Shown here: one piece after another, positions 12,663 to 49,933 of the stretch | Layout of the letters: each line of letters opens with the position of its first letter | How positions within the stretch are numbered: the stretch's first letter is position 1 | Source: Acidimicrobiia bacterium | Lineage (GTDB): Bacteria > Actinomycetota > Acidimicrobiia > Spongiisociales > UBA5794 | Assembly: GCA_029287195.1 (NCBI GenBank) | Contig: JARFRN010000249.1 | Location: 20,352-84,351 of the forward strand | Length of the DNA: 64,000 bases | Direction of reading: 5' to 3' | Made by a program: the position numbers and the translations under genes | Notes under the pieces: model-generated | Told to the model about the DNA's origin: nothing | Database searches by the model: none | What the model saw: the letters and a program-made list of their open reading frames with translations, nothing else

Positions 12663-13343
12663 TCATCCTGTCAGCTGCGACCAAAATCGGCGCGGGCTGT
12701 CGATGATACGGCTGGCAGCGGTCACGGCAAGGAGAGCCGTGGCGGGGTGATCATGCCCAAATCGAGCTATGAAAGTCTGCTGCTCCAGTGAAAGCGGTCC
12801 GAACCGGAGAGCCTCGATCAGTGCGACACCCGGGGAGTGTCCCTCTCCCGCTTGCAGAGCTGCGATGACACTGCCCGTGCGTCCCACGCCCGCCTGGCAG
12901 TGCACGAATACCGGTCCCGAGGCGGCAGTGATCGTCTCTCTGATCTCGGCGAGCTGCGCTGCAGTTGGGGTCTGGCCGTCCCGAATCGGGATGTGAATCC
13001 AAGCGAGCCCGGCTTCAGTGGCTCGGTTTGACGAGGTCGTAGGTTCGGCCTCAGCCCTGAGGTCGATCACTGCGACAACGCCACCATCGGCCAGGGCCGC
13101 GTATCCCTCGGGACTAGGTGCGGCACCCCGCCAAACGTTCTCGGTCACCCGAGCGAAACCCTCGACCCCGATGAAGGCTTCGACCGGCGAACCTCGCAGT
13201 AGTCGAACTGCGAAGTGCGGCGCCGCAACCAGCAGGTGCATCACCGTAAGGACTGCAGTCATCAGCAGCAACTTCCTCAGCCCGCGAGGCGTCGGTCGTC
13301 CTGCTATCTCCGAGGCGGCATCTTTGCCCGCTGTGATCATCAT
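12663..13343 (-). CDS. Protein-tyrosine / dual-specificity phosphatase family protein with an N-terminal membrane anchor
   Basis: CX5R P-loop HCQAGVGRTG, preceded by a hydrophobic segment LLLMTAVLTVMHLLVAA. Confidence 0.65.
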   Translation of the reverse strand: MMITAGKDAASEIAGRPTPRGLRKLLLMTAVLTVMHLLVAAPHFAVRLLRGSPVEAFIGVEGFARVTENVWRGAAPSPEGYAALADGGVVAVIDLRAEAEPTTSSNRATEAGLAWIHIPIRDGQTPTAAQLAEIRETITAASGPVFVHCQAGVGRTGSVIAALQAGEGHSPGVALIEALRFGPLSLEQQTFIARFGHDHPATALLAVTAASRIIDSPRRFWSQLTG

Positions 13344-13541: not shown

Positions 13542-14207
13542 CTACAGCTTGCGGTTCATCCGCTGGATGTGCCTCATCCGCCTGCGTGCGGAGCGGCTGG
13601 AGCCCTGAGTTCGAGGGGGCGGTTGTGGAGTGGACTGCGGAGGCGCGTCGGACATCGGCGTCCGGGTGGTCGGCCGCCAAATGCGTATGACCAGCAGACC
13701 GGTGGCAATCACCCCGGCGGAAACGATCCCGAGTGCGGCCGTTCTCAACACCTTGGCATCGGCGGCATCGGCTGCTACCGATGAACCCTCCGGGGTCCGA
13801 CCTTCAGCGGCGCCGACGGCTTCTTGATAGGCGGCCGGGATCGCGGATCCGGTCGGTTCGTAGGGTCGGGTCGCCGAGCAGATGCTGGCCAGAAATGGAG
13901 TCCGACTGTTCTCCGGAACGACCAGGTAAGTGGCGCCGGCCACGAACTTGGCAGCGTTTTCCCCGGTGGAGTCGGTGCCGTGGACTTCGACTCGGCCGGG
14001 CAGATCGCGGCCCTTCCATATGGACACGACGCGCATGGTGGCCGTGTGGCCGTCCTCGGTCGTAGCTGCCACCTCGCCGACGAACACGGTCGAGGCCTCG
14101 CCCAAGGCCTGGGCGACGTCGGTCGGAGGGCTACAGGTAGCGATCGCAGTTGCGGGTGCGGCCAGCAGCAGCCCGACGGCCGCGGTGAGGAGCAAGCTGC
14201 GCATCAT
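13542..14207 (-). CDS. Hypothetical exported protein (signal peptide plus C-terminal TM anchor). Last gene of a TadE/TadG-like operon.
   Basis: N-terminal signal MMRSLLLTAAVGLLLAAPATA, a C-terminal TM helix, then a basic Pro-rich tail. Its start overlaps the stop of the upstream gene by 4 bp. Confidence 0.45.
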   Translation of the reverse strand: MMRSLLLTAAVGLLLAAPATAIATCSPPTDVAQALGEASTVFVGEVAATTEDGHTATMRVVSIWKGRDLPGRVEVHGTDSTGENAAKFVAGATYLVVPENSRTPFLASICSATRPYEPTGSAIPAAYQEAVGAAEGRTPEGSSVAADAADAKVLRTAALGIVSAGVIATGLLVIRIWRPTTRTPMSDAPPQSTPQPPPRTQGSSRSARRRMRHIQRMNRKL

Positions 14208-15976
14208 CGAATCAGCTGGGTGTCAGGGTCGGCGGGGAAGAGGACGGCCCGGTCGAAATTGGGTCGGACGACCAGCAGACCCTGTCCCTCGGAACTCAGG
14301 GTTCTGGAAACGAACTGAGCGGCCACCTGCTCCTGAGACCCATTGCCTCGGTAAACGACCCGGGCCCACGGGGCAAAGAACACTCCTTCGAGGTCGAGCG
14401 CCGCCTGGCCGGCAAGCTGGTGGACGGCGGGCGACTCGGACCACATCGAGAGCGCTTCGAAGTTGCCGCTCTGCGGGCCGGTCCAGGTGAGAGCTCCCGT
14501 GCCGCCCGACATTGCAATACCCGAGGAGGCCGAGTAGTACATCATCGTGTTGTAGAGAAGCACGCTCCCCTCTCCGGCCTTGATCAGGTTGCCGTTACGC
14601 ATGTAGGCAATGGCTGCATCCGAGTCCGGGCTGTAGGGGTAACCACCGGCGGGTTTGCTGTTGAGTGCCAGCACACCGCTTGACTCGACGACTACATCGC
14701 CATCGAAGATGACGTCACCGGCAGGGAACACAACTGTGCGCTTGACTTCGAACGGATCGCAGTCGATGTGCCAGTTCCCGGCAGGTGCGATGATCTCGGT
14801 CCCCGGTCCGCCTTCAATGGAGCACGGATAGCCGGCCCCGGTCCAGGAAGTGAAACCGGTCGGCGTGCCCGTACCGCCATATGCGGCCACAAGGTTGTCG
14901 ATGTGCGGCGCCGGAGCATCTGTGCAGGGATCGATTTCCCACCCCACCGGCATCGGGTAAGCGGCTTTGCAGTTGAAGCGGTGATCGACCGGCGCTCGCG
15001 TTATTCGCTCTCTACCTGCGCTCGGGTCGGGGGACACGGTCCCGGAGCTGGTGCAGGCCGGGTAGTTGCATCCCGGTGTGCCCGGCGCCAACAGCCGGAG
15101 GGCACCGCAGCCCTCTCCAACCGTTAGCCCTCCGGGGCCCACGTGTGTGCCCGTCTCTGTATCACATCCGGTGGGCCCGTCGGCCCGGATGTAGGCATTG
15201 CTGCCGTCGACGTCGAGGACACCGTCGCCGCCGCATACGCCGGAGGCATCGGAATCGATCGCAATGTAGCCGGGGTCGAGTTCGCCGGTGTCCGTATTGA
15301 GGACGGCGTCGACGACGATGCCGCCGAGACCGCCGCCGCTGCCTGCTGCGGTGATGGTGTCACAGTCGTACCGCTCGAGGATGAGCAGGTTGAGCGCAAA
15401 GTCCTCGCTCGGTGGAATGAAGGTCTTGGCTACCGAGGAGACCGTTGTGTCCTGCGAGGCGGCGCCGATAATCGAGGCGAAGAGGTGTTCATGGTTGCTG
15501 GTTATCGAGACTCCGAACCGCTCGCATGGGTCGCCGTCATCGGTGCTGATCGCCTGGCCGCTGGCTCCGATGGCGGAGGGGTCGAGCAGCGCTGCCGCAT
15601 CAGGGACGGGGTAGGTCAGCGTTACCGTCCAGTCCCCTGATGTGCCCGTCGTGGTCGTTGACGGGGTCGAGGCATCACATGAGGTAGGGAACCCGAGGCA
15701 GGAGGCGCCGCTGAGCGTGCCCACCCCGGAGAGGTTCAGCTCGAGGTAGTCGAGGGCGGTTTCACAGCCGGCGCGACCGTCTCCTTCGGCTGCGTCGAGC
15801 GCTCCGGCGGTTGATGCAGCATCGGCGGCAACGAGGCTGGCGGCTCGGTTCGATCGCACCGCACCCAGGTCGATTACCAGAGCAGCGATGGCGAGCAGCG
15901 TAACCAAGGCGATGGCAACGATGAGCAGCACCGCACCTTCTTCTCCGGTCCGGCCGGTAGTTTTGGCCGTCCGCAT
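14204..15976 (-). CDS. TadG-like / Flp-pilus-assembly TadE/G-like domain protein (large secreted Gly/Thr-rich protein)
   Basis: The N-terminus GAVLLIVAIALVTLLAIAALVIDLGAVRSNRAASLVAADAASTAGA matches the Tad (PF13400-like) pattern. The remaining 590 aa are Gly/Asp/Thr-rich and extracellular-looking. Confidence 0.6.
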   Translation of the reverse strand: MRTAKTTGRTGEEGAVLLIVAIALVTLLAIAALVIDLGAVRSNRAASLVAADAASTAGALDAAEGDGRAGCETALDYLELNLSGVGTLSGASCLGFPTSCDASTPSTTTTGTSGDWTVTLTYPVPDAAALLDPSAIGASGQAISTDDGDPCERFGVSITSNHEHLFASIIGAASQDTTVSSVAKTFIPPSEDFALNLLILERYDCDTITAAGSGGGLGGIVVDAVLNTDTGELDPGYIAIDSDASGVCGGDGVLDVDGSNAYIRADGPTGCDTETGTHVGPGGLTVGEGCGALRLLAPGTPGCNYPACTSSGTVSPDPSAGRERITRAPVDHRFNCKAAYPMPVGWEIDPCTDAPAPHIDNLVAAYGGTGTPTGFTSWTGAGYPCSIEGGPGTEIIAPAGNWHIDCDPFEVKRTVVFPAGDVIFDGDVVVESSGVLALNSKPAGGYPYSPDSDAAIAYMRNGNLIKAGEGSVLLYNTMMYYSASSGIAMSGGTGALTWTGPQSGNFEALSMWSESPAVHQLAGQAALDLEGVFFAPWARVVYRGNGSQEQVAAQFVSRTLSSEGQGLLVVRPNFDRAVLFPADPDTQLIR

Positions 15977-16479
15977 CAGGTGGCCCGTTCGAAACGGACG
16001 GTCGACTCGCCCTGCAGGGTGAGAGTCGTGCTCCAGAGCACGAGAACCAGGTCGGAATCACGCGCCAACTGCACCTGGACGCGTCGTTCATCGTTGGGTC
16101 GACCGTCGGCAAAGCACGTGTTGTTTACCGACACGGTGCGAACTCCGGTGGAATTGACCAGGATGCGGGCGGTGCGGTCATCCGCATCGCTTCCGTCCGG
16201 GTAGACGTAGGCGATACAGACCGCGCGCCCTTGAATGCCGTCGTCGAGGTCACCCGTCGCCGAGCGGATCGCCACGTCGGCTACGTCGTTGAGCCACGTC
16301 GACATGCCGCTCTCCACCGGCAGCGTAGCCCCGTAGCGGGCAGCCTCCCGTGCCGCATTGTCCACCGAAATATTGCGATTGAACGCGATGCCGCCGGTGA
16401 TGATGCCCATGAGGATCATCAGCAGCAATGGCAGAACAAACGCAAATTCGACTAGTTGAGCACCTTGTTCGTTGCGCAT
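15976..16479 (-). CDS. TadE/TadF-like pseudopilin family protein
   Basis: The TadE N-terminal motif GAQLVEFAFVLPLLLMILMGIITGG, followed by AAREAARYG. The internal start MRNEQG was chosen. Confidence 0.65.
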   Translation of the reverse strand: MRNEQGAQLVEFAFVLPLLLMILMGIITGGIAFNRNISVDNAAREAARYGATLPVESGMSTWLNDVADVAIRSATGDLDDGIQGRAVCIAYVYPDGSDADDRTARILVNSTGVRTVSVNNTCFADGRPNDERRVQVQLARDSDLVLVLWSTTLTLQGESTVRFERAT

Positions 16480-16798
16480 GCGGGTTGTCCAGGTCGTCCG
16501 CCCATAGGATTCAGACCCGCCGGTGTCCATCGGTGGAGCCGTGCTCCGCCAAGCCCTTCTCGGTTTCATTGAGATCGCCTACCCCTTGCTGGCTCTCTTT
16601 CGACCTGAACGGCGATGACCGCCGCAGACAGATCGTCTTGCCGTGTTATCGGCAACTGAGAGCGAAATCTTGAGCGCGTTCCAGAAGCTCGACCGCAGCT
16701 CTTGCGCTGGGCTCGAGCAAGAACGAGTAGGGGGTTGGCTATTGGAATGCGGCTGCCACGGCGCGACAATGAACGCAGGTCGCACGAGGAGCGATGTC

Positions 16799-17204: not shown

Positions 17205-18893
17205 CTAACGGTTCCGGAACCGTTGCACAGCCCGGTTGATGGTTGGGAACGATTGGATCGGCCCGGCCGGTGCCAGAAGGCCGGCGCGGGTGAGCCGGTC
17301 GATTGTGGTGCTGTTGGTCCGAGCGACACCCACCACTTCGATTCCCAGGCTCGGTAGCTCACCGAGGAGTTCCTCCAGCATCTCGATCGCTGTGGTGTCG
17401 ATTGAGCCCACTCCGTCGAAGTCGAAGATGATCCACTCCTCGACACCCGGGTTGGTTTCCAATGCCTGACGCACCCGCTGATGGAACCACTCTGCGTTGG
17501 CGAAGAACAGCGGCGCATCAAATCGATAGACCAGCAGTCCGGGCAGTGGCCGCGCCGTCGGGAAGTCGTCAACTGCCACCCAGCCGTCGAGCTCTGAAGC
17601 ACCGCCGAGGACGGCATCGCTGGGTCTGGCGATACGCCATAGGGCGACTGCAGCCGACAATGCGACCGCGATGAGGACTCCGGTAAGTACATCGAAGATC
17701 ATCACGCCCAACGCAGTGACGGCTGCGAGCGCGAACTCAGATCGGCTCAGTCGCCACAACTCTTTGAAACCGGCTACGTCGATGATGGCAATGGCGGCGG
17801 CCAGGATTACCGATCCCAGGGCCGCCTGGGGGAAGTTGGCCAGCACCGGTCGCAAGAACAGCAGAGTAGCGGCGACGAAGAGGGCGGCCACCACGCCCGT
17901 CAGCTGGGAGTGAGTGCCGATGGACGCCGGCACGAACGATCGGCTGGCACTCGATGAGACCGGGAAACCCTGGGATATCCCGCTCGTCAGATTGCACGTG
18001 CCGAGAGCGATGAATTCCTGGTTGGGATCGATCCGATATCCGTGTTCGGCGCTGATGGATCTGGCTGTGAGAACGTTGTCGGAGTAGCCGACCAGGGCGA
18101 TGCCGAGGGCGGCCGGGATCAGCGCCGCCATGTCACTTCCACTCACATCCGGAAAGCCAAGCGCAGGCAATCCGGCGGGGATGTTGCCGACAACTGCGAT
18201 GCCGTGGTCGGCCAGCGAGAACAAAGTTGTGACGCCGGTCGCGAGCGTCACTGCGATCAGAGCCCCGGGTACTTTGGGCCAGCGGCGCAAGAAGAGGATC
18301 AACCCCAGTGTTGCCGTCCCCATGGCCAGGGTCGCAGCCCGGATCTCATCCAGCTCGGTGATCATCTCCGCAATGCGACCGAAGAAGTCATCGTTCTCGA
18401 TCGGGATGCCCGTTACCTTCGATATCTGGCTGCTGATCAAGGTGAGCCCGATCCCCGTGATATAGCCGACGAGAACCGGACGGGATAGCAGATCAGCGAG
18501 AAAGCCGAGGCGAAACGCGGCGGCAATCAAGCACACGGCAGCCACGGCCAGAGCGAGGGCAGCCATCAGCGCCGCGTACCGCACAGGATCGCCCGCCGCC
18601 ATCCCACCGACCGCCGTGGCGGCCAGGATGGCGGTTCCGGGCTCGGGTCCCACGCCGAGGTGACGCGACGTACCGAGGATCGCATAGGCGAAGAGTGCCA
18701 GTAGCACGGCATAGAACCCGGCCTCGGGGGGCATGCCGGCAATCTCGGCGTACGCCATCGACTGCGGTATCAGCATTGCCCCAACGGTCAATCCGCCGAG
18801 GAGATCGGCTCGGAGCCAGGAGCGCTGATAGTGGAGCAGACGGTCCAGTCCCGGAGCGAGCCGCAGCGGACCGATCGGGGCCTGCCGGTTCAT
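17205..18893 (-). CDS. SulP-family anion (sulfate/bicarbonate) permease with a C-terminal STAS domain
   Basis: A 562-aa polytopic membrane protein with typical SulP N-terminal motifs (AGLTVGAMLIPQSMAYAEIAGMPPEAGFYA) and a C-terminal STAS domain (IFDFDGVGSIDTTAIEMLEEL). Confidence 0.9.
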   Translation of the reverse strand: MNRQAPIGPLRLAPGLDRLLHYQRSWLRADLLGGLTVGAMLIPQSMAYAEIAGMPPEAGFYAVLLALFAYAILGTSRHLGVGPEPGTAILAATAVGGMAAGDPVRYAALMAALALAVAAVCLIAAAFRLGFLADLLSRPVLVGYITGIGLTLISSQISKVTGIPIENDDFFGRIAEMITELDEIRAATLAMGTATLGLILFLRRWPKVPGALIAVTLATGVTTLFSLADHGIAVVGNIPAGLPALGFPDVSGSDMAALIPAALGIALVGYSDNVLTARSISAEHGYRIDPNQEFIALGTCNLTSGISQGFPVSSSASRSFVPASIGTHSQLTGVVAALFVAATLLFLRPVLANFPQAALGSVILAAAIAIIDVAGFKELWRLSRSEFALAAVTALGVMIFDVLTGVLIAVALSAAVALWRIARPSDAVLGGASELDGWVAVDDFPTARPLPGLLVYRFDAPLFFANAEWFHQRVRQALETNPGVEEWIIFDFDGVGSIDTTAIEMLEELLGELPSLGIEVVGVARTNSTTIDRLTRAGLLAPAGPIQSFPTINRAVQRFRNR

Positions 18894-19475: not shown

Positions 19476-20813
19476 TCATGAGGAGACGATGCTTCGGATC
19501 CGTGCCGCCTCGGTCTCGATCGTGGCGGTATCCACGAGGCCGCTGGCGGTGACGATGGCGGACCATTCGCTGAGGATCTGTTCGGCGACGCCACTGTCGT
19601 AGAGTTCTGCCTTCAGTTCTGCAGTGCGGGTTTCGATCAGCGCAGACCAGGAGTCGTTGGCGAGGAATCGTTCCACCAGCACATTGGACTGGTCGAGCTC
19701 CGGTGCTCCAGGGTCGCCCTGACCGCCCGGTCGGTCGCCCCGCCCGCTGCCGGGACCGGGTGCGGCGGCATCGAAGCTTTCGGGTGCCGATGCAGCCTCG
19801 GGCCGGACCGCGGCGATTTCACCCGTCTCACCGGCCGGATCGCCGGGCCCGGGGGTGAGCCCGAAAGCCAGATTGTGGTCCCACGGCACGACCGTGAACT
19901 CGTCCGTATCGGTGTCGTAGAAGAGGTAGGAGTTGTTGCCTCGGCCGTCGATGTCGTCGAAGTTGTCGATCAGGTCCTGCATTGCCAGGTAGGTCACAAA
20001 GGCGTCGATGTCGAGCCATTGATCGAGCTCGGCGACGAAAGTGGTGTCGTCGGAGTTGTTGATGAAATCTAGGAACTCGATGAGCGGGGCGAGGTCGGCG
20101 TTGTCCTTGCCGGCCTCTTGGTCGAAGACCTCGTCGTATGCGTCGGGGTCGTTGCCGCGGTAGGTGTAGTCGCCGGTGCTCTCGGCCTTGTAGAGAGCGC
20201 CGTCGGCATCGAACTCCTCGGCCATCCAGAGGTCGTCCGGGTGTTCGATCACGAGCCGCAGGACCGGTTCTGCGGCATCGACACTGAACTCGACGGCGAT
20301 TGCGTCTTGTGACGCCAGCCCGGCGATTTCGAGCAGTTCGAGCGCAACGGCTTCGTTGAGGGCAGTGGTCGAACTGTTCGAACGCACCACGAGGTCGGTG
20401 AGTCCTTCGTAGTTCTGGTCGTTGATGTACTTGTCGAGCTTGATCAGCCAGGGGAGGGTTTCGGCATCGGAAGATGCAGATAGGCTGAAGAGCGACGAGT
20501 TTCCCTTGAGCCGGATCCCGGCCCGCTCGTACGTCACGCCGTCGATTGTGACTGTGGCCTCGATCCATTCTTTGTCGCCGTTCGAGCGGTAGGCCTCGAT
20601 CAACTCGTCGTAATCGGCGTTGTCGAAGCTCACGTCAATTGTGTGAACCTCACTGCTTTCGAGCGTGCCCACTGCCCCGAACTCCGATGTTGCCGAGTCA
20701 ACCTCTGCCGAGGCTGCCTCGACCGTGCCCGCGGCACTGTCGGTTGCGCAGCCGGCCGCCACGGCCCCCGCCAGGATCGCGGCGACCAACGAGTATTTGG
20801 AGTGCTTGATCAT
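19476..20813 (-). CDS. CotH family protein (spore-coat-protein-H-like atypical kinase), lipoprotein
   Basis: Lipoprotein signal LVAAILAGAVAAGC, and the CotH core NNSYLFYDTDTDEFTVVPWDHNLAFG plus WLDIDAFVTYLAMQDLIDNFD. The start MIKHSKY at 20813 was chosen. Confidence 0.8.
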   Translation of the reverse strand: MIKHSKYSLVAAILAGAVAAGCATDSAAGTVEAASAEVDSATSEFGAVGTLESSEVHTIDVSFDNADYDELIEAYRSNGDKEWIEATVTIDGVTYERAGIRLKGNSSLFSLSASSDAETLPWLIKLDKYINDQNYEGLTDLVVRSNSSTTALNEAVALELLEIAGLASQDAIAVEFSVDAAEPVLRLVIEHPDDLWMAEEFDADGALYKAESTGDYTYRGNDPDAYDEVFDQEAGKDNADLAPLIEFLDFINNSDDTTFVAELDQWLDIDAFVTYLAMQDLIDNFDDIDGRGNNSYLFYDTDTDEFTVVPWDHNLAFGLTPGPGDPAGETGEIAAVRPEAASAPESFDAAAPGPGSGRGDRPGGQGDPGAPELDQSNVLVERFLANDSWSALIETRTAELKAELYDSGVAEQILSEWSAIVTASGLVDTATIETEAARIRSIVSS

Positions 20814-20995
20814 TGTCCGTTTCCTTTGCATGGAAGATGTCTTCAATGCTTCGAAGGTATGCCCCGATCCTGGGAAGTCGCTGGGAGCCGGCTGCGAGTT
20901 GGCTCCAGGATCGGGCGTGAGGACTCCAGCCGAGGTCGGGGACCCGGTTTGAACCGGGTCCCCGTTGGGAGTCTTGGCGAGTGTGCGTCTTCATC

Positions 20996-21910
20996 TCATG
21001 GCCGGACTCCTTCCACGAGGGGTCGCGCCTTGCCCGGCGACCGGCCTTGGGGACTGTGGCTCAGGCGAGCGGCTGATTTGGCGATGATCGGGGCAACAGG
21101 TCCAACCGGTAGGGGTCTCGAGTGACGGCGTATCTCGGCGCTGCCGGGCCGGGGGGACCACCCGAAGTACTCGCGGAGAACCCGATTCCACTTGTTGGCG
21201 GGCAACGCCGGGGTCAGGGCGGCCAACCCGGTGCCGTACTTGCTGATCTTGGCGGGCCGCCGATGGATTTCCCACAAGAGATGGTCGACAAGACACGGCC
21301 GACCTCCGGTCTTCGTCTCCACCACGGCAACTCGAGGCAAGGTCACGCTCGATCCGTCGGTAGCGACACATTCGAGATCGGTATCGACAGTGATGCGGCT
21401 CGTCGAGTTGGTCTCGAGCAGCGTCGTGCGCTGGTAGCGGGTGGTTAGGGAGGGTTGGAGGGCGCGGCCGACCGGCGCAATGACGTCGAATTGGTCAATG
21501 AAATCGAGAGCTTCTTCGCTCAGACTATGTCGGTTCTCGAACTCATGCGGAAAGCGATGCTTCACGGTCAGCCCGCGATGTTCTCGGGTCTTGACCTCGA
21601 GAAGACACGTATTGCTGTCTAGATAGGAACGGGTGCGAACCTTGAAGCGACGCCGCCGGCGGTGCGCCGCCGCCAGGTATGAGATGTGGTCGGGGGTATC
21701 GAAGTACACGGACTCGTAGCGGAAAGTGCGTCGCCCATCGATCTCCAGCACCTCGAGGTTGGCGCGTTCGATGATCTGTGCCAGGTGCGGCAGCAGGACC
21801 AGGTACTTGCGGTCCTTGCGGGTTTGCAGGGCGGCGACGCTATCGAGATCCGCGAGCCCGATCGCATCGAGTTCCGCTATGGGCAGTCGATTGGATGCGG
21901 TCATTGTCAT
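20996..21910 (-). CDS. VTC (CYTH-like, polyphosphate-polymerase-like) domain-containing protein
   Basis: VTC/CYTH pattern RKYLVLLP...RYESVYFDTPD...RFKVRTRSY...LEVKTREHRG. It overlaps the upstream DUF4956 gene by 4 bp. Confidence 0.7.
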   Translation of the reverse strand: MTMTASNRLPIAELDAIGLADLDSVAALQTRKDRKYLVLLPHLAQIIERANLEVLEIDGRRTFRYESVYFDTPDHISYLAAAHRRRRRFKVRTRSYLDSNTCLLEVKTREHRGLTVKHRFPHEFENRHSLSEEALDFIDQFDVIAPVGRALQPSLTTRYQRTTLLETNSTSRITVDTDLECVATDGSSVTLPRVAVVETKTGGRPCLVDHLLWEIHRRPAKISKYGTGLAALTPALPANKWNRVLREYFGWSPRPGSAEIRRHSRPLPVGPVAPIIAKSAARLSHSPQGRSPGKARPLVEGVRP

Positions 21911-22509
21911 CGCCCCTGTTTCATCGATGCGAAGCCCGCATCGCGGCGGCTCCACCCGGTTCCCGCCGTGGGGAGCTGGTAGCGCACATCGACCGAGGTC
22001 GTATCGTTGACCAGGTCGATCTTGCGAACGGTGATGTTGTGCACCTTGGCGCCGAGCAGGCTCTCCAGGTGCATCGCGAGAGCGGTTTCGTCGGTGTAGG
22101 CGGCGTCGACGTTGATGATCTGGTTGCGATACTCCCCGAAGAGAGCGGGGTGATCGCCGACATACAGCGCGGCGAGGATCGCAGCGGCCATCAACGGCAT
22201 TGCCCAGGAGAAGGACCCGCCGAGCCCGGCAAACAGCCCCATAGCCAATGCTCCGAAGTAGTAGGCGATCTCGGTGTGGTCGAGCTCATCGGAGCGGAGT
22301 CGGATGATCGACAGTATTCCGAACAGGCCGAGCCCAAGCCCCGCCTGGATGGCCGAGGACGCCAGGATGCTGGCAACGGCGACCACGCCGATATTTGCGG
22401 TCAGATACGCAACGATCATGCCCTTGCGCCTATGGCGCGGGAAGTAGAGGCCAAACGTCAGAATCAGGATGGCGACTATGTCGATGAGAATCAGGATTGA
22501 GAACGACAT
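21907..22509 (-). CDS. DUF4956 domain-containing membrane protein
   Basis: An N-terminal TM segment (ILILIDIVAILILTFGLYF) plus the conserved region RRKGMIVAYLTANIGVVAV...GILSIIRLRS. The start at 22509 is supported by the RBS GAAAGGGA 7 nt upstream. Confidence 0.7.
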   Translation of the reverse strand: MSFSILILIDIVAILILTFGLYFPRHRRKGMIVAYLTANIGVVAVASILASSAIQAGLGLGLFGILSIIRLRSDELDHTEIAYYFGALAMGLFAGLGGSFSWAMPLMAAAILAALYVGDHPALFGEYRNQIINVDAAYTDETALAMHLESLLGAKVHNITVRKIDLVNDTTSVDVRYQLPTAGTGWSRRDAGFASMKQGR

Positions 22510-22728
22510 GCTGGTAGTCCCTTTCGGCTTCGTTGAGCCCATCGTGTGACACGACCCTGGGGATCACCTGAGAGCAGCCTCCGGGCCTACTGAGACTTGA
22601 CCCGGTTTGGTATTTGGGGCACAAGGCGTCTTACAGCGATCCCGCGGCAATCGGACCTAGGGTCTGAGAGCTACGCTGACAGGACTATGACGGTCGAACT
22701 GCTGACCAAATGACTAGCGAAGAGGACC

Positions 22729-23091
22729 GTGACAAATAGGAACACAAAGAGGGCCACCGGCGACGAACCGTTCCTGCTCTCGGGCGGCAACCCGCAGATC
22801 GCCAAGGGTGATGGCGATGTCCCGGTGCAGGCGTATCTCGAGGCGATGTCGGGTTGGAAACGCGAAGTCGGCTACCTCCTCGACTCTCTCATCGTCGCCG
22901 CGGTGCCCGACGTGCGCAAAGCCGTGCGGTGGAACTCGCCGTTCTACGGGATCGACGGCGAGGGCTGGTTTCTCAGCTTCCATTGCTTCGAGAAGTACAT
23001 CAAGGTCACCTTCTTGAAGCGTGCCTCACTGGACCCTCCGCCCCCCATATACTCCAAGCACGAACCTGTGCGTTACCTCCACGTCTATTAG
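22729..23091 (+). CDS. DUF1801 (YdhG/YdeI-like) family protein
   Basis: W..PFYGIDGEGWFLSFHCFEKYIKVTF fits the DUF1801 pattern. Confidence 0.5.
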   Translation: MTNRNTKRATGDEPFLLSGGNPQIAKGDGDVPVQAYLEAMSGWKREVGYLLDSLIVAAVPDVRKAVRWNSPFYGIDGEGWFLSFHCFEKYIKVTFLKRASLDPPPPIYSKHEPVRYLHVY

Positions 23092-23486
23092 GTGGAACAG
23101 CTCGACCGAACGCAATTCGCAGACTGGGTGACGCAGGCCGGCGCCCTGCCCGGAGAAGCCCTCTTCTAGAGACTGAGCGCCGCCGGCACCCGGCGTTGTT
23201 CGCCGGCGAGACGGCGGATGTGGCTTCACTTACTGTCCCGTCGGCTCGACTGGTTGAGCGATGTGCCGAAACGGGCGGGTGCGTCAACGGGCCGCGAGGT
23301 GCTGTGACGGTCTGCCCACCGGGATTCCGAGAAGGCATATACTCGCGACGTTCCCAGCGTGCTCTCAGAGCGTCTTCAGGATGGCTTCAGCAGGCAGTGT
23401 TGGGGTGACCTGGTCCAACGATTGGAGCATCCTTGTCTGCACCCGCCGATCCAGCACATCGACAGCGATTTCACCGCAGCCGCTTG

Positions 23487-24371
23487 ATGGGCACGGCTAT
23501 CGATGTGATTGTGGATTCCTATCCGGAGATCGCAGAGCGCTTTGCCCTCACCGTATTCGCAGAGATCGAGCGACTGGAGCGAGTCTTCAATTGGTTTGAC
23601 CGTGACAGCGAGTTACGCCGCTGGAGTCGCGGCGAGACCAAGCCGGGCAAGGAGCTCGCCGAAGTGTTGGCGCTGGCGGAGCTCTGGAAGCGGCGCAGCC
23701 GCAAAGGCTTCGACCCCGCTGCCGGTTCGCTCGTTGCGCTGTGGGCTCGTGCTGTGGAGGAGGGCTGCGTCCCGAGCAAGACTGAGATTGCCGAGACGCT
23801 GGGCGCCATGAACTCCTCAGTTGATGGCCATAGCCTCAATGCCATCGCAAAGGGATGGATCGTCGATCAGGCCGTCCGGCAAGGTCTGTCCGAGGGCCCC
23901 GTGGGCAATCTGGTCGTGAACGCCGGCGGCGACCTGCTCCACCACGGTGCAGCCCCGATCATCGCCGGGATCGAGGATCCGCGGCGTCCGTTCGACAACG
24001 TCCCGCCGCTGCTCAGGGTAAGGGTGGACAACATGGCTCTTGCCACCAGCGGTGGTTCGCGGCGTGGCTGGACCATCGATGGCGAGCGCTACAGCCACAT
24101 CATCGACCCCAGGACAGGATGGCCGCAAAGCCATGTCGAATCTGCTTCGGTGATCGCCCAGGACGTGGCGACCGCCGATGCAATGGCCACCATTCTCACC
24201 GTTGTGGAAGTCGAAGAAGGGCTGGCCCTGAGCGAGGAGATCGACGTCGGCTGTTGCATCATCGATGCATCCGGCGCGATGCGCCGCAATGAGCGATGGC
24301 GGCACGCCGAGCACATGACGTGGGACACCGACGACCCGGCACTCACGCAGGGAGTTCTCAGGTTCCGTTAA
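23487..24371 (+). CDS. apbE: FAD:protein FMN transferase (ApbE family), apparently without a signal peptide
   Basis: ApbE pattern MGTAIDVIV...DPAAGSLVALW...AIAKGWIVDQA...ATSGGSRRGW...HIIDPRTGWP. No hydrophobic N-terminal signal is present between the first in-frame start (23433) and the domain. Confidence 0.8.
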   Translation: MGTAIDVIVDSYPEIAERFALTVFAEIERLERVFNWFDRDSELRRWSRGETKPGKELAEVLALAELWKRRSRKGFDPAAGSLVALWARAVEEGCVPSKTEIAETLGAMNSSVDGHSLNAIAKGWIVDQAVRQGLSEGPVGNLVVNAGGDLLHHGAAPIIAGIEDPRRPFDNVPPLLRVRVDNMALATSGGSRRGWTIDGERYSHIIDPRTGWPQSHVESASVIAQDVATADAMATILTVVEVEEGLALSEEIDVGCCIIDASGAMRRNERWRHAEHMTWDTDDPALTQGVLRFR

Positions 24372-24418
24372 GGGGCGTCTCCTAGATTTGACCGAAACAG
24401 AGAACCCAGGAGCTAGAA

Positions 24419-25138
24419 ATGACGACCGCTCGATCCGGAGAGTCCCGATACCGGGAGCTCACCCGTCGCGCCTTTCTTCGGCGCAGTGCCGCGCTCGGCG
24501 CCACTGTTGCCATTCCGAGTTCGATCCTTGCTGCTTGTGGAGGGTCCGACGCAGCAACCTTCGAAGACGGCAGTGCCGGCTCGACCACCACTCCGGGCTC
24601 GACAACAGCTGCGACCGCTCCTACGACAACGACGACCACCTCACCCACAACCACCGAGGCCCCGGCCCCGACGACCGCCATTCCCACCGGGGGAGAACTG
24701 GTCGTTGACTTTACCTATGAAGCGGATGGCACCTCGACCGGCGGGGTGAAGAACCCGTATGTCGCCGTGTGGCTGGAGGACGAGGCTGGAGAGCTGGTGG
24801 CCACTATCGCGCTCTGGTTCATGCAATCGCGGAAGGGCACCAAGTGGCTGAGCGATCTGCGGCGCTGGGCCACGATCGACGGCAGCGACGAAACCATCGA
24901 CGCCATCTCGAGCGCCACCAGGCGGCCCGGCAGCTACAGCGTGGTGTGGGACGGCACCGACATCGATGGAAACCGCGTCCTCGCCGGCGACTACTTCATC
25001 GCCATCGAATCCGCCCGGGAACATGGTCCCTACTCGCTGATTCGGGAACAGATCCGCCTGGGCGCCGAGGCCTTCTCACAAACCCTCGAAGCCGAGGGGG
25101 AGCTGAGCAGCGCAACCGTTTCGCTCGTCCTCGCCTAG
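24419..25138 (+). CDS. DUF2271-like Tat-signal lipoprotein
   Basis: Tat motif RRAFLRRSAALGATVA followed by a lipobox (LAACGG). There is a Thr/Pro-rich linker, and the conserved core is KNPYVAVWLEDEAGELVATIALWF...IDAISSATRRPGSY. The DAISSAT stretch resembles a Dxx(S/T)GA(S/T) flavinylation motif. Confidence 0.6.
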   Translation: MTTARSGESRYRELTRRAFLRRSAALGATVAIPSSILAACGGSDAATFEDGSAGSTTTPGSTTAATAPTTTTTTSPTTTEAPAPTTAIPTGGELVVDFTYEADGTSTGGVKNPYVAVWLEDEAGELVATIALWFMQSRKGTKWLSDLRRWATIDGSDETIDAISSATRRPGSYSVVWDGTDIDGNRVLAGDYFIAIESAREHGPYSLIREQIRLGAEAFSQTLEAEGELSSATVSLVLA

Positions 25139-25142
25139 CGCT

Positions 25143-25802
25143 GTGATGGATTCCCCGGGAACATCTGCGGACAGTGAACCCACCGAACCCGGTCCAGAGC
25201 GGCGGACTCGAGGCGGAATCTGGAAGAACGGCCTCAACTGGACGCGAATCCTCCACGTGTATACCTCGATGCTGGCCCTTCTCGTGGTGCTGTTCTTTGG
25301 CGCCACCGGAGTCACATTGAATCACCCGGAATGGACGTTCGGGTTCGACCCGACGAGTGCGTCTTACTCCGGGACACTTCCCGCTGGGTGGCTGGCCGAC
25401 GACGGATCGGTGGAATTCCTCACCGTGAGCGAATACCTCCGCGACACCTACGGTGTCGATGGTGAGGTAGCCGACTTCGGCACCGACCTCGGGGACGGCT
25501 ACATCAGCTACCGGGAACCTGGTTACACCGCCGACGCTTTCTTCGACCTCGAGACCGGCGACTATCGGCTCGCTATCGAACAGCAGGGGTGGATTGGAGT
25601 CCTCAACGAGCTCCATAAGGGACGGGACACGGGCTCGTCGTGGAGCTGGCTGATAGATGTGTCCGGGTTGTTCCTCGTGGTAATCGCCACGACCGGTCTC
25701 GGGCTGCAGCTGTTCCTGGCCAAGCGCCGCAGAGCGGCGCTGCTGTGGGCCTTGGCGGGCTCGCTGGCGACCATCGCTCTCATCGCCATCGCCGTCGCAT
25801 AG
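25143..25802 (+). CDS. PepSY-associated TM helix (PepSY_TM) domain protein
   Basis: LHVYTSMLALLVVLFFGATGVTLNHPEW, plus the C-terminal helix GLFLVVIATTGLGLQLF, is typical of PepSY_TM (PiuB/FoxB-like) proteins. Confidence 0.7.
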   Translation: MMDSPGTSADSEPTEPGPERRTRGGIWKNGLNWTRILHVYTSMLALLVVLFFGATGVTLNHPEWTFGFDPTSASYSGTLPAGWLADDGSVEFLTVSEYLRDTYGVDGEVADFGTDLGDGYISYREPGYTADAFFDLETGDYRLAIEQQGWIGVLNELHKGRDTGSSWSWLIDVSGLFLVVIATTGLGLQLFLAKRRRAALLWALAGSLATIALIAIAVA

Positions 25803-25965: not shown

Positions 25966-26301
25966 ATGGGGTCCGGCCGGCATGCCGAGGCAGCGGATTC
26001 TGCCCTGACATTCACCCTCGGCTTGTCTGTCGTCGGCATCGAAGGCGCACCCTCGGATACGACTGCGATCGTCTCCGCCCTGGGTCGTGTCTTGGAGGAT
26101 ACATCGGTGTCGCTCACCGGCGTCATTCAGGCTGATGCTGCCATCACTGAAGGTTCGAGCGGTGGCGCTCTCCTCGATGTCCAAGGCTCGCTGATCGGGG
26201 CCACCACCGCGGTGGGGGTCGGCAGTGTTGGTGTGGAGGGGATTGGCTTCGCCATCCCGGTGGAGACCGTCATAGCCGTCGTTGCCCAACTCACCTCTTG
26301 A
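25966..26301 (+). pseudogene. Remnant of an HtrA/S1C trypsin-like serine protease (C-terminal part of the protease domain only)
   Basis: AIVSALGRVLED...VIQADAAITEGSSGGALLDVQGSLIGATTA...GIGFAIPVETV matches the Ser-containing end of the S1C protease domain. The His/Asp parts of the triad and any PDZ domain are absent. Confidence 0.4.
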
Positions 26302-26357
26302 GCGACAACCCAGCGAATTCTCAGGGAACTCCCAGAAACCAATCGTAAGCTCACGGC

Positions 26358-27056
26358 ATGGCTGCGCCCGATCACAACGCAACGATCCTCGTCGTCGACG
26401 ACGAGGAGTCGCTCACTAACCTCGTCTCGAGCGCGCTCCGTTTTGCCGGCTACACCGTCCGTTGCGAGGACAATGGATTCGATGCGCTGCGATCCGTCAA
26501 GGAACAGAACCCCGACCTCATCGTTCTCGACGTGAATATGCCGGAGATGGATGGCTTCGACGTATGCCGGAGGTTGCGGCGCGACGGCAACACGGTCCCC
26601 GTCATATTCCTCACCGCCCGCGACGACATCGATGACAAGCGGGTCGGTTTCCGTCAGGGCGGCGACGACTACCTGACGAAGCCGTTCAGCCTCGAAGAGC
26701 TCGGCTTGCGAATCGAAGCCCTGCTCCGTCGTACCGGAAACGCGGCCGAGCGTTCCCGACTGACGGTGGGCGACATCGTTCTCGACGAGGATGCCTACCA
26801 GGTGTGGAAGGACGACACAGAGATCTCGCTGACACCCACCGAATTTCGGCTTCTCCGGTTTCTCCTCCTCAATCGGGGTCGGGTCATGTCGAAGAGCCAG
26901 ATCGTCGATTACGTGTGGGAATACGACTTCGACGGCAACTACGGGATCGTCGAGACCTACGTTTCCTATCTGCGCAAGAAGCTCGGCGACCCCGAAGGGT
27001 CGATCATCCAGACGGTCCGTGGCGTTGGATATGTCATTCGCGAGACGGTGGCATGA
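26358..27056 (+). CDS. OmpR/PhoB-family response regulator
   Basis: Receiver domain (LVVDDEESL...DLIVLDVNMPEMDGF...KPF) plus a winged-helix domain (LTPTEFRLLRFLL...VRGVGYVI). Confidence 0.9.
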   Translation: MAAPDHNATILVVDDEESLTNLVSSALRFAGYTVRCEDNGFDALRSVKEQNPDLIVLDVNMPEMDGFDVCRRLRRDGNTVPVIFLTARDDIDDKRVGFRQGGDDYLTKPFSLEELGLRIEALLRRTGNAAERSRLTVGDIVLDEDAYQVWKDDTEISLTPTEFRLLRFLLLNRGRVMSKSQIVDYVWEYDFDGNYGIVETYVSYLRKKLGDPEGSIIQTVRGVGYVIRETVA

Positions 27057-28474
27057 CCCTGCAGACCAAGCTGGTCATCTCCTTCACCATTCTCCTGTTG
27101 GCGATTATCGCCGCCGTCGGTATTGCTGCCTCCAGATCGATCGAGAACATTCTGGTGGCCCAGACCGACAGGGCGCTGACCAGCTTTGTCACTCGCGGGC
27201 CGGACCCGCGGCCCGACCGCGGTGTACCCGAGTCTCTGCCCAATCAACCCGAGCTCCCGCCCGAAGAGGTAGCCGATGTGACCGACGGACTCTTTCTCCG
27301 CCCATTCGCCGAACTCGTTATCGCCCCCGATGGCACGGTGCTCCGCAGCGAGCCATCCGGCTTTGCCGACGACCCCGATCCTCTGCCCGACACCTCTGAT
27401 CTTCCTGCGACCTCCGGCCTTGTGTTCCTCGACAGTGTGGACGGCACGCTCCGCTATCGGGCCAGCATCAGCACCTTCGATGATGGAGTCGTCGTGGTGC
27501 GCGCCGCGCCACTCAGTGATGTCGCGACGGCCACCAGCTCACTGATCCGGGCGCTGCTCCTCACCGGCGGCGGAGTACTCCTCCTGGGCGGTACTGCCAC
27601 CTGGTGGACCGTTCATCACGCCTTTCGACCCGTCGACGAGATGGTCGAAACAGCCGAAGAGATCGCGGCCGGCGATCTCACCAGCCGGGTGCCTGAAACT
27701 GCAGCGACGATCGAGCTGAATCGGCTCGGCAGCGCCCTCAACGAAATGCTGGCGCACATCGAGAAGGCGGTCGACAACGAGCGCGCCGGGCGGGAGCAGC
27801 TCCGCCGGTTTGTGGCGGATGCTTCCCATGAGCTGCGCACCCCGGTTGCTGCCATTTCCGGCTACGCCGAGCTGCGCCGCTCCGGCGGGCTCACCACTTC
27901 CGCTGCCAGAGATGACGCATGGTCGCGCATCGAACGGGAGAGCAACCGGATGGGCAAGCTCATCGAGGAACTCCTCACACTCGCCCGCCTCGGCCAAGCC
28001 CAGCCTCTCAACAAGCAGCCGGTCGACCTGGTCCAAGTGGCTCGCGATGCGGCCGCCGACCACGCGACTATTGATCCAAGCCGCCCGGTCGAACTCACCG
28101 GCGCCGATCACGCCGTGCTCTTGGGCGATCGAGAACGGCTGCACCAGGTCGTTTCCGGCCTCCTCTCCAACGTCAGAGCCCACACGCCTGAAGGCACCAC
28201 CGCCCGGATCGCAGTGGCATCAGACGACGAGTCCGTCGAACTCACAGTCACCGACGACGGCCCCGGCATACCCGAACCGGCTCTCCAACACATCTTCGAC
28301 CGGTTCTACCGGGCCGACCCTTCCCGCTCCCGCCACACCGGCGGCAGCGGTCTCGGGCTCGCCATCGTCGACGCCATCGTTTCCGCCCATAGCGGCACCG
28401 TCGCGGCATCCAACGCCCACAACAAGGGAGCCAGGATCATCGTCACCCTTCCGCGCCGCACGACAGATGTCTGA
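27053..28474 (+). CDS. Sensor histidine kinase, partner of the response regulator at 26358
   Basis: TM1, a periplasmic region, TM2, a HAMP domain, the H-box SHELRTPVAAI, N/G1 boxes, and G2 GGSGLGLAIVDAIV. The ATG at 27053 overlaps the response-regulator stop in an ATGA arrangement. Confidence 0.85.
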   Translation: MTLQTKLVISFTILLLAIIAAVGIAASRSIENILVAQTDRALTSFVTRGPDPRPDRGVPESLPNQPELPPEEVADVTDGLFLRPFAELVIAPDGTVLRSEPSGFADDPDPLPDTSDLPATSGLVFLDSVDGTLRYRASISTFDDGVVVVRAAPLSDVATATSSLIRALLLTGGGVLLLGGTATWWTVHHAFRPVDEMVETAEEIAAGDLTSRVPETAATIELNRLGSALNEMLAHIEKAVDNERAGREQLRRFVADASHELRTPVAAISGYAELRRSGGLTTSAARDDAWSRIERESNRMGKLIEELLTLARLGQAQPLNKQPVDLVQVARDAAADHATIDPSRPVELTGADHAVLLGDRERLHQVVSGLLSNVRAHTPEGTTARIAVASDDESVELTVTDDGPGIPEPALQHIFDRFYRADPSRSRHTGGSGLGLAIVDAIVSAHSGTVAASNAHNKGARIIVTLPRRTTDV

Positions 28475-48547: not shown

Positions 48548-49933
48548 TCAGCCCGGCTGTGCTATCGGCAACGTGACGGTCACCTGGGCCCCGCGGGCAC
48601 CCCGGTTGGTCGCATCGATGGTGCCGTCGTGTGCCGTGACGATGGCCGCTGCGATCGCTAGTCCCAGGCCGCTCCCATTGCCGACGCGCCCGCGCCCGTG
48701 ACCAAATCGTGGGAACGATGAACCGATGTGCGCCTCCGCAAAACCCGGCCCGTCGTCGGTGATGGTGCAAACGGCGCGGCCGTCCTCTTCCGCAAGCGTG
48801 ACGTCGACCCGACGCTCGCAGTGAGTGACCGCATTCTCGATCGCATTGCGGAAGACTCTCTCCAGGGCGTTGTCATCGCCCTGCGCCGCGGCTGAGCCGC
48901 GTACACAAACCTTCACGTCGCGCTGGCCCGGTTCGCGCATGATGGTTGCAGTGGCTCGGCGCGCAATCGCGGCCAGGTCACACGGTCGAAGTCGAGGATA
49001 CGACTCGCGGGCGCGCGCCAAGGTGAGCAAGTCCGCAGCGAGGCGATCCAATCGATCCAGCTCCTCGATGGATGACAGCACTGCGTCGCGGGCGGCGGAG
49101 TCTCCATCGACCTCGTGGAGCAGCAAGTCGAGCTCACCGCGGGCCACCGCGATCGGCGTTCGCAGCTCATGGCTGGCGTCGTCTAGGAATTGACGCTCCC
49201 CTTCGAATGCATCCCGTAGATGATCAAGCAGGTTGTCGAGGCTCACAGCAAGCGAACTGATCTCCACCGTGTCCGGTTCGACCTCCAATCGCCACGGAGC
49301 CTTTCCCTTGGCGACGGCATCAGCCTGGCTTGCCAGCTCATGCACAGGTCGCATGGCGTAGGTGACGGCAAGCCATACCCCCCATCCGATGAGGCCAGCA
49401 AGCAACGGCACTGCCAGCCCGATTATCCATAGTGAGGTCGCCCTGGCGGCTGCCTCCGGTTCCAGCGACGCACCAACGATTCCGATCAGCTCTTCTCCAT
49501 CAATCGTCATGGTGCGCGCCATCACCAGGGCTTGCGCGCTGCTGTCGCTGGGGTCGCTGATCTCCGCCACAAAGTCACCGGGCGCTGCGGTGACCTCGGC
49601 AGGGGACAGCACTGGGCCCAGGCTCGCCAGCTCAGATGAAGCGGCCACCACTTGACCCGTCCGGGTGACAACCTGCACGAAGCGCTCCGGCGTCGGCAGC
49701 ACGACCGGGTCGGGTGCCGAGGATGGGCCTAACGCCGCTAGGTCGAGTTCTGCCTCCAGTGCGCCCAAGTGATCCGAAACGCCGTCTTCGATTGCGTCCT
49801 TGACCTGGCTTTCCCAGTACACGATGCTGGCGATTCCAACGGCAGCGACTACGACGGCGGTCGTAAGCGCCGCCCGCCAGGCAAAACGTGCGCGCAGCGT
49901 TCGCCTAGCTTGGTGTGCCATTGGAATCTGCAT
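48548..49933 (-). CDS. Sensor histidine kinase (second two-component system)
   Basis: TM1, a periplasmic domain, TM2, a HAMP domain, H-box SHELRTPIAVARGELD, N-box NAIENAVTH, and G2 GSGLGLAIAAAIV. It overlaps the response-regulator 3' end. Confidence 0.8.
   Translation of the reverse strand: MQIPMAHQARRTLRARFAWRAALTTAVVVAAVGIASIVYWESQVKDAIEDGVSDHLGALEAELDLAALGPSSAPDPVVLPTPERFVQVVTRTGQVVAASSELASLGPVLSPAEVTAAPGDFVAEISDPSDSSAQALVMARTMTIDGEELIGIVGASLEPEAAARATSLWIIGLAVPLLAGLIGWGVWLAVTYAMRPVHELASQADAVAKGKAPWRLEVEPDTVEISSLAVSLDNLLDHLRDAFEGERQFLDDASHELRTPIAVARGELDLLLHEVDGDSAARDAVLSSIEELDRLDRLAADLLTLARARESYPRLRPCDLAAIARRATATIMREPGQRDVKVCVRGSAAAQGDDNALERVFRNAIENAVTHCERRVDVTLAEEDGRAVCTITDDGPGFAEAHIGSSFPRFGHGRGRVGNGSGLGLAIAAAIVTAHDGTIDATNRGARGAQVTVTLPIAQPG

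Follow-up and report, generated by a model that had tools for sequence, protein, structure and literature searches.

Genes and proteins of the locus

A gene module encoding a DUF4956 membrane protein, a VTC-domain protein and a CotH-family lipoprotein lies in a genome of the Acidimicrobiia (Actinomycetota), within a stretch of 64,000 nucleotides of contig JARFRN010000249.1 (positions 20,352 to 84,351 of the forward strand), to which all coordinates below refer and which we call the window. A first-pass annotation made from the sequence alone had described three successive minus-strand open reading frames (ORFs), and these were recovered, head to tail, at the same positions (Table 1). Its domain calls were upheld by Pfam, which returned PF16316 (DUF4956) at E=2.7e-57, PF09359 (VTC) at E=7.7e-27 and PF08757 (CotH) at E=4.7e-30. 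NCBIfam yielded no model for the DUF4956, VTC or CotH protein of this locus, and no defence-system match was found with PADLOC.

The annotation had placed a 4-bp overlap at each of the two junctions, which proved correct for the first junction and wrong for the second. The DUF4956 stop codon (TGA, 21909-21907) overlaps ATG 21910, which opens the VTC frame (ATGA, 21910-21907); public gene calls place the VTC start at the next ATG, 21904. At the second junction, the VTC gene ends at 20996, and the ATGA found there (20999-20996) is followed by an in-frame TGA two codons on. The CotH frame stays closed until 20846, the earliest possible ORF start, so the VTC and CotH genes are separated by a spacer of 149-182 nt. 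ATG 20813 is the best candidate for the CotH start; it is preceded by the ribosome-binding site AAGGAA and agrees with the 445-aa product in public records.

The VTC protein aligned to PF09359, its sole Pfam domain, at 94.8 bits (cut-off 23) over profile positions 2-234 of 235. Residues ~30-250 make up the catalytic domain, and a disordered tail occupies residues 269-303 at the C terminus. A phmmer search of PDB sequences with the single VTC sequence gave no match; a profile built from 26 VTC homologues matched the catalytic domain of yeast Vtc4 (chain 3g3q) in the same sequences at E=8.9e-6. When an AlphaFold2 (AF2) model of the protein, with a predicted local distance difference test (pLDDT) score of 84.6, was compared with the PDB by Foldseek, the top eight matches were Vtc4 polymerase structures (E 8.9e-12 to 3.1e-10), with E. 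coli YgiF, thiamine triphosphatase, class IV cyclases and CYTH enzymes ranking below them. The model has an eight-stranded tunnel fold that is closest to that of Vtc4.

Cryo-EM of Vtc4 has identified K200, R264, R266, K281, Y359, R361, S457 and K458 as triphosphate ligands and E426 as a Mn ligand, and the position of K458 is occupied by Ile/Leu in the non-catalytic Vtc2 and Vtc3 (bioRxiv 10.1101/2023.01.27.525886). With the offset of 185 residues between the numbering of PDB chain 3g3q and that of Vtc4, these nine residues correspond to K35 (K200), R92 (R264), R94 (R266), K107 (K281), Y159 (Y359), R161 (R361), E198 (E426), S223 (S457) and K224 (K458) of the VTC protein, all of which are invariant across the 26 homologues. 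The conserved tunnel residues had been proposed in the annotation as a check on the VTC call, and nothing is missing: nine of the nine Vtc4 catalytic residues are kept. Sequence and modelled fold alike give the VTC protein the appearance of an active polymerase of the Vtc4 type.

The DUF4956 protein starts at ATG 22509, and the identical 200-aa protein occurs in several metagenome assemblies. It matched PF16316 over its full length (193.6 bits, profile positions 1-169 of 169), is 57-87% identical among sampled homologues, and is predicted to contain 4-5 transmembrane (TM) helices. An AF2 model placed five helices in residues 3-119, followed by a beta-alpha-beta-beta domain at 127-178; because its pLDDT is 62, only the secondary structure was used. 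Foldseek with this model gave nothing below E=0.037 and weak ACT-like fragments for the C-terminal domain only, in agreement with a remark in a preprint on Streptococcus intermedius (bioRxiv 10.1101/2024.04.20.589940), and phmmer against the PDB gave a chance-level match only. The alignment of homologues revealed two invariant basic clusters, PRHRR (24-28) and IIRLRS (68-73). By the positive-inside rule, these conserved basic residues (P24-R25-H26-R27-R28 and R70/R72) and the C-terminal domain would lie on the cytoplasmic side of the membrane.

The CotH protein, which matched PF08757 at 105.6 bits, is present in the public record as a 445-aa protein of 100% identity (P0241). The earlier designation as a lipoprotein is supported by its signal peptide, MIKHSKYSLVAAILAGAVAAGC, in which a basic stretch and a hydrophobic stretch precede the lipobox AAGC. 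The protein matches the Bacillus cereus CotH chain 5JD9 at E=5.9e-5 over ~165 residues, with the NFD, Asn and PWD motifs aligned. The kinase activity of B. subtilis CotH is lost on mutation of D228 and D251 (PMC7821199), and the two catalytic Asp residues of the B. cereus chain are 23 residues apart, as are D228 and D251. Residue roles were assigned from that study and the alignment, the correspondence in numbering being deduced from motif and spacing. K103 (in GIRLKGNSS), E154, D286, N294, D312 and N314 are at least 97% conserved among 120 homologues of this CotH subfamily, so that an active-site check called for by the annotation found the catalytic Asp (D286), the Asn (N294) and the metal-binding Asp (D312) all in place. 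A Gly/Pro-rich insertion follows the PWD motif. The active site is thus intact, but the enzyme, because of its lipoprotein signal, is predicted to lie outside the cytoplasmic membrane.

A conserved gene pair and its exchangeable partners

The triad had been considered a recurring neighbourhood in diverse bacteria. A scan of one genome per species identified at least 574 species with a DUF4956 relative, and local hidden Markov models (HMMs) were applied to the best 80 loci, which come from 80 species of Actinomycetota and Chloroflexota. In these two phyla the module occurs in at least several hundred species. The recurrence is real in these 80 species' loci; in the literature the neighbourhood figures only as accessory genes. 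The co-occurrence statistics that the annotation had suggested were clear for the first two genes: VTC comes next after DUF4956, in the same orientation, in 77 of the 80 loci, and in 59 of 71 related species a VTC start is available that shares 4 nt with the end of the DUF4956 gene. These results show that DUF4956 and VTC form a translationally coupled, almost invariably adjacent pair.

The third member varies in identity and in position. Within 3 kb, 27 loci have a CotH gene and 46 have a gene of the Cthe_2159 family, the latter assignment confirmed by Pfam (E=2.9e-92 and 2.2e-83); one or the other is present in 72 of the 80 loci, and both in a single locus. Most other actinobacteria sampled have a Cthe_2159 beta-helix lipoprotein where this locus has CotH. 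Of the 27 CotH-type loci, 18 have the CotH gene upstream in divergent orientation and 7 have it upstream on the same strand; in the remaining 2 it is downstream, the arrangement of the window. A lipobox or twin-arginine translocation (Tat) signal was detected in 19 of the 27 CotH partners and in 39 of 50 Cthe_2159 partners. Judged by gene content and order, the conserved core is the DUF4956-VTC pair; its two partners, of which CotH is one, are interchangeable, mobile in position and predicted to reside at the cell surface.

Gene fusions provide information on topology. Five single ORFs join VTC, a linker, a TM segment with a lipobox, and CotH (P0310, P0333, P0338, P0361 and P0362), and a sixth has the form VTC-TM-Cthe_2159 (P0480), arrangements that place VTC inside the cell and its partner outside.

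Several variants were encountered beside these. Outside the window, a 775-aa protein (P0412) carries a CotH domain of the same subfamily fused through a lipobox-like segment to a GT2 glycosyltransferase and a GtrA/DPMS TM domain, a further instance in which CotH, outside the membrane, is tethered to a cytoplasmic enzyme that makes a donor; in another protein (P0369), a lamin-tail domain stands ahead of CotH. The CotH proteins of three Chloroflexota loci (L072, L039 and L076) have twin-arginine signals (RRxFL/RRQLL) and no lipobox, which implies export in a folded state. One Acidimicrobiia contig contains a second, paralogous module ~3 kb upstream of the DUF4956-VTC pair (L003:2426-4366, L004:2581-4379), with gene calls of 158, 227 and 255 aa in the order VTC-DUF4956-CotH, as in NELoc-2 of Clostridium perfringens.

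A common operator, a two-component system and the probable transcription units

Alignment of the regions upstream of DUF4956 exposed conserved hexamers at 22- and 11-nt spacing, and the operator was defined as the direct repeat YCNCAG-N5-YCCCAG in 11-nt phase. The three-hexamer pattern has one match in the window, upstream of DUF4956, where 0.09 would be expected, and loci of eight other species have it in the same placement. The two-hexamer core would be expected 0.30 times in the window but has four matches, a number that none of 100 shuffles reached: once upstream of DUF4956, twice, overlapping and hence comprising three hexamers, in the VTC-CotH spacer, and once 23 nt before the start of a gene for an OmpR/PhoB-family response regulator (RR), a placement shared with four related loci (L005, L013, L014 and L040). 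Related loci totalling 1.5 Mb gave 22 strict matches, every one of them upstream, and correctly stranded, of DUF4956, CotH, Cthe_2159 or RR genes, as are 51 of 64 relaxed matches if two upstream of a trypsin-like gene are included; upstream windows of this kind amount to 3.9% of the sequence scanned. At 15 of 39 sites, including all three in the window, a NANNNT hexamer stands exactly 10 nt past the last repeat, where 1.0 would be expected. One relaxed match in the window (TCCCAG-N5-TCTCAG, 23352-23368, plus strand), ~120 nt before the ApbE gene, was not counted, as it has neither a third hexamer nor a -10-like box; it falls within chance expectation (about one per window).

The RR gene is followed by that of a sensor histidine kinase (HK), the two forming a two-component system (TCS). 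Neither protein reaches an NCBIfam equivalog cut-off, the hits of the RR being sub-threshold with PhoB the best of them. An OmpR-type RR with a HAMP-containing HK is found within 5 kb in 27 of the 80 loci, and 17 of these are among the 27 CotH-type loci. Direct repeats in helical phase are thus present at both target and regulator promoters, close to an OmpR-family RR/HK pair, as in a regulon. The copy before the RR gene implies autoregulation, and the distribution of sites implies, at the level of sequence, an autoregulated regulon composed of DUF4956-VTC, the surface partner and the TCS itself. The layout resembles that of PhoB/OmpR class II promoters (pho boxes), in which direct repeats with an 11-bp period abut the -10 element instead of a -35 box and the regulator gene has its own copy of the site. 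YCNCAG is not known as the repeat unit of the pho box in E. coli or of its actinobacterial counterpart (PHO box). The RR promoter itself looks leaderless. A second OmpR-type RR/HK pair in the window is unrelated, scoring 199 and 160 bits on HMMs of the module's TCS against 482 and 803 for the module's own pair.

The annotation had described the three genes as a single operon, a view that the VTC-CotH spacer does not bear out: its 149-182 nt contain a hairpin and, ahead of CotH, the operator once more with a -10-like box. The hairpin (-27.1 kcal/mol, z=-3.75; z=-4.0 for the whole spacer) occurs once in the window. In a close relative (L005), the spacer has another strong hairpin in the same position, with no conservation of spacer sequence between the two loci. 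Folding and comparison brought the hairpin and the -10-like boxes to light; scans for consensus sigma-70 promoters and U-tract terminators yielded nothing relevant, and the hairpin was not called as a canonical terminator. A search of Rfam with the hairpin gave only a sub-threshold match to a small RNA (BjrC68, E=0.17). The hairpin may serve the DUF4956-VTC transcript as a terminator lacking a U-tract, as an attenuator or as a stabiliser of the mRNA 3' end. Simple co-transcription of CotH with DUF4956-VTC is doubtful on account of the hairpin, the separate operator and the -10-like box, and the most economical reading of the sequence is that of two co-regulated transcription units, DUF4956-VTC and then CotH, with read-through from the first into the second possible.

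The genes within 10 kb of the module encode DUF1801, ApbE, DUF2271 and PepSY_TM proteins, a trypsin fragment, the RR and HK, and SulP, TadE and protein-tyrosine-phosphatase-like proteins. The first four form a block between the DUF4956 promoter and the TCS. In L005, a trypsin-RR-HK unit is directly divergent from DUF4956, which, together with the short trypsin/HtrA-like remnant in the window, suggests that an insertion or rearrangement truncated the trypsin/HtrA-like gene. Downstream of CotH lie a gene for a SulP-family anion transporter, which is not conserved in the related loci inspected, and TadE-like genes; beyond these, ~6 kb from CotH, is a phosphatase-like gene, whose coordinates were obtained by correspondence with L088:15203-15802 and whose assignment is based on matches to Y_phosphatase2, DSPc and related Pfam families.

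Table 1. Positions in the window of the module, its putative control elements and neighbouring genes
Feature	Position	Strand	Description
DUF4956 membrane protein gene	21907..22509	-	200 aa; Pfam PF16316
VTC-domain (Vtc4-like triphosphate-tunnel) protein gene	20996..21910	-	304 aa (302 aa from alternative ATG 21904); Pfam PF09359
CotH-family (atypical protein-kinase fold) lipoprotein gene	19476..20813	-	445 aa; Pfam PF08757
CotH alternative starts	20846; 20831	-	TTG 20846 (longest ORF); ATG 20831
Hairpin in VTC-CotH spacer	20938..20963	-	Perfect 12-bp GC-rich stem, 33 nt past VTC stop, without U-tract
Operator upstream of DUF4956	22557..22595	-	TCTCAG-N16-TCTCAG-N5-CCCCAG; 48-86 nt before ATG 22509
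-10-like box, DUF4956 promoter	22541-22546	-	CACGAT, 10 nt past operator
Operator upstream of CotH	20870..20897	-	Three hexamers, TCGCAG/TCCCAG/TCCCAG, 11-nt spacing
-10-like box, CotH promoter	20854-20859	-	TACCTT, 10 nt past operator
Operator upstream of RR gene	26308..26351	+	ACCCAG/TCTCAG/TCCCAG, 11-nt spacing; TAAGCT 10 nt on, then ATG 26358
OmpR/PhoB-family response regulator (RR)	26358..27056	+	Response_reg and Trans_reg_C
Sensor histidine kinase (HK)	27053..28474	+	HAMP-HisKA-HATPase; two TM segments around a ~170-aa extracytoplasmic domain
Trypsin/HtrA-like protease remnant	25966..26301	+	111-aa C-terminal piece; L005 version 316 aa, between TCS and DUF4956 promoter
DUF1801-ApbE-DUF2271-PepSY_TM_like_2 block	22729-25802	+	ApbE: FAD:protein FMN transferase family
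SulP-family anion transporter gene	17205-18893	-	With STAS domain; directly downstream of CotH
TadE-like genes	14204-16569	-	Flp pilus assembly
Protein-tyrosine / atypical dual-specificity phosphatase-like gene	~12663-13262	-	199 aa
Second OmpR-type RR/HK pair	48557-50603	-	

A proposed polyphosphate pathway and its alternatives

The same three protein families have been met elsewhere. DUF4956 alone has been reported in Bacteroides, and the triad in streptococci, clostridia and bifidobacteria. In Gram-positive pel operons, cotH, a 'poly-phosphate polymerase' and DUF4956 (with DUF4832) are accessory genes (Whitfield et al., bioRxiv 10.1101/768473); the triad is encoded by SIR_1594-1592 of S. 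intermedius, where the secreted CotH was remarked to retain its catalytic residues (bioRxiv 10.1101/2024.04.20.589940); and the three families stand side by side in C. perfringens NELoc-2 (PMC2879425). The locus shares with the pel accessory cluster the adjacent genes for the three families, but has no pel genes and no DUF4832 within 10 kb, runs in the order DUF4956-VTC-CotH and is linked by its operator to an OmpR-type TCS, and in most actinobacteria the Cthe_2159 lipoprotein replaces CotH. The triad was thus known before; what sets this locus apart is the pel-free setting, the gene order, the dedicated TCS with its operator, and a lineage in which Cthe_2159 is commoner than CotH.

A further comparison is with the eukaryotic VTC complex (yeast Vtc4/Vtc3 or Vtc2/Vtc1), in which the Vtc4 tunnel leads onto a pore whose vestibule is lined by rings of Lys and Arg. 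The locus shares with it the PF09359 domain, the tunnel fold and the nine triphosphate and Mn residues, including the Lys458 equivalent, as well as the combination of a catalytic domain with a small multi-pass membrane protein that has conserved, predicted cytoplasmic basic residues, and a flexible hydrophilic tail. Unlike the eukaryotic complex, it lacks, by Pfam, both the SPX domain and the DUF202 TM domain, and is therefore not a strict member of that family. Its catalytic protein is soluble and separate, its membrane partner is a DUF4956 protein with an ACT-like C-terminal domain, and it has in addition an extracytoplasmic lipoprotein partner and a two-component regulator. By analogy, the locus plausibly works like the eukaryotic VTC complex.

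The best reading of the locus that we can infer is an envelope-associated polyphosphate or phosphoryl-transfer system, as the annotation had supposed, and this reading is strengthened by the extracytoplasmic lipoprotein character of both partner types, the VTC-TM-partner fusions and the common operator. We tentatively propose, as a model with just under even odds of holding as a whole, that the locus is a bacterial split counterpart of the eukaryotic VTC machine, under TCS control, in which polyphosphate synthesis and export are coupled and served by an extracytoplasmic partner. The cytoplasmic VTC protein, docked on a DUF4956 oligomer, would polymerise polyphosphate from ATP, and DUF4956, with its invariant Arg/His clusters towards the cytoplasm, would, on the model of yeast VTC, hand the polymer through the membrane. 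At the outer face, the polyphosphate would be taken by the membrane-tethered partner, CotH here and the Cthe_2159 lipoprotein in most other actinobacteria. CotH might, speculatively, use polyphosphate as a phosphoryl donor, or graft or anchor the polymer on envelope proteins or glycans; a supply of ATP for it outside the cell is not obvious. The OmpR-type regulator would activate all three promoters, with the repeats standing in for the -35 box, and since one operator precedes DUF4956-VTC, CotH and the RR gene, CotH would be co-regulated and not simply co-transcribed. The CotH predicted here differs in its situation from the Bacillus CotH spore-coat Ser/Thr kinase (PDB 5JD9/5JDA), with which it shares the Pfam family and the aligned catalytic Asp (NFD), Asn and metal-binding Asp (PWD): the Bacillus enzyme acts on the spore surface within the mother cell, where ATP is present, and phosphorylates CotB and CotG, whereas the CotH of this locus is a predicted exported lipoprotein of a non-sporulating actinobacterium.

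Bacterial polyphosphate is attributed to PPK1 and PPK2. These established polyphosphate kinases have the same product as that presumed for the module, polyphosphate from nucleoside triphosphate, but their folds are unrelated to VTC, they release polyphosphate in the cytoplasm, and they have no dedicated membrane or extracytoplasmic partners. The model in its fullest form, a third and PPK-independent bacterial route that runs from a VTC polymerase through a DUF4956 channel to CotH as donor user or grafter, or to Cthe_2159 as receiver, switched by an envelope-sensing TCS, strikes us as rather unlikely to be right in every part.

Several points weigh against the proposed model. We know of no protein-kinase-fold enzyme that uses polyphosphate as a donor, and the literature searched yielded no biochemical data on a bacterial VTC-domain protein, DUF4956 or a secreted CotH. 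The part of the alignment that contains the equivalents of E426, S457 and K458 scores weakly when taken by itself (domain score 1.2), although it runs collinear with the match at the level of the fold. As to the fusion ORFs, gene calling may have read through starts internal to them. In a Pfam search at E<=10, DUF4956 matched neither DUF202, the channel domain of yeast VTC, nor any other transporter family, and its role as a channel is conjecture, given this lack of DUF202 similarity, the pLDDT of 62 and the want of a significant structural match. Finally, the chemistry does not demand export, since the central domain of Vtc4 makes polyphosphate without a channel, and the S. intermedius authors proposed that the product stays in the cytoplasm (bioRxiv 10.1101/2024.04.20.589940).

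The last two observations favour an alternative that we consider less than probable but one to be taken seriously, in which polyphosphate or a short oligophosphate stays cytoplasmic, DUF4956 is an anchor or ACT-type regulator, and CotH is an independent ATP-dependent secreted kinase or a TCS accessory lipoprotein that is merely co-regulated. It would also account for a DUF4956 protein that is unlike the VTC channel domain and has a weakly ACT-like C-terminal domain, and for the presence of CotH inside the RR-HK operon in 18 of the 27 CotH-type loci, which recalls actinobacterial TCS accessory lipoproteins. Such a scheme leaves unexplained the linkage of 72 of the 80 loci to one of two extracytoplasmic lipoproteins and the VTC-TM fusions to either of them, and it offers no ATP source for an extracytoplasmic kinase.

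A role as an accessory module of exopolysaccharide production, in which the triad would modify or regulate a secreted polysaccharide, for example by glycan phosphorylation, with polyphosphate incidental, is suggested by the pelDEADAFG genes that adjoin the triad in streptococci, clostridia and bifidobacteria, by the GT2-GtrA_TM-CotH fusion (P0412) that ties this CotH subfamily to lipid-linked glycan pathways, and by the polysaccharide-lyase-like, carbohydrate-binding nature of the Cthe_2159 family. We regard it as unlikely: neither here nor in the relatives inspected is there a pel or other polysaccharide-synthesis gene within 10 kb, and the conserved neighbours are instead a TCS and sometimes an HtrA-like protease. 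It is quite unlikely that the VTC protein carries out a different chemistry of the TTM/CYTH superfamily, acting as a tripolyphosphatase, an NTP phosphohydrolase or a cyclase-like signalling enzyme in a module that senses or signals. That superfamily does include triphosphatases and cyclases, and YgiF, thiamine triphosphatase and class IV cyclases are among the lower-ranked structural matches, but Vtc4 specifically is the best match in both sequence and structure, and the equivalent of Lys458, which separates active Vtc4 from its inactive paralogues, is invariant. Chance adjacency of unrelated genes, with the non-overlapping VTC/CotH junction as the sole point in its favour, is hardly conceivable in the face of the joint conservation in 80 species, the fusion ORFs and the common operator.

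If the proposed coupling of polyphosphate synthesis and export is correct, it would explain the phosphoryl supply of an extracytoplasmic kinase-fold enzyme, and the Gram-positive envelope would gain a pathway for polyanion export. The locus offers experimental handles in the nine catalytic residues of the VTC protein, a predicted topology backed by fusions, the either/or surface partners, and a defined operator with its regulator, and it represents a widespread candidate route to bacterial polyphosphate, now with explicit parts.

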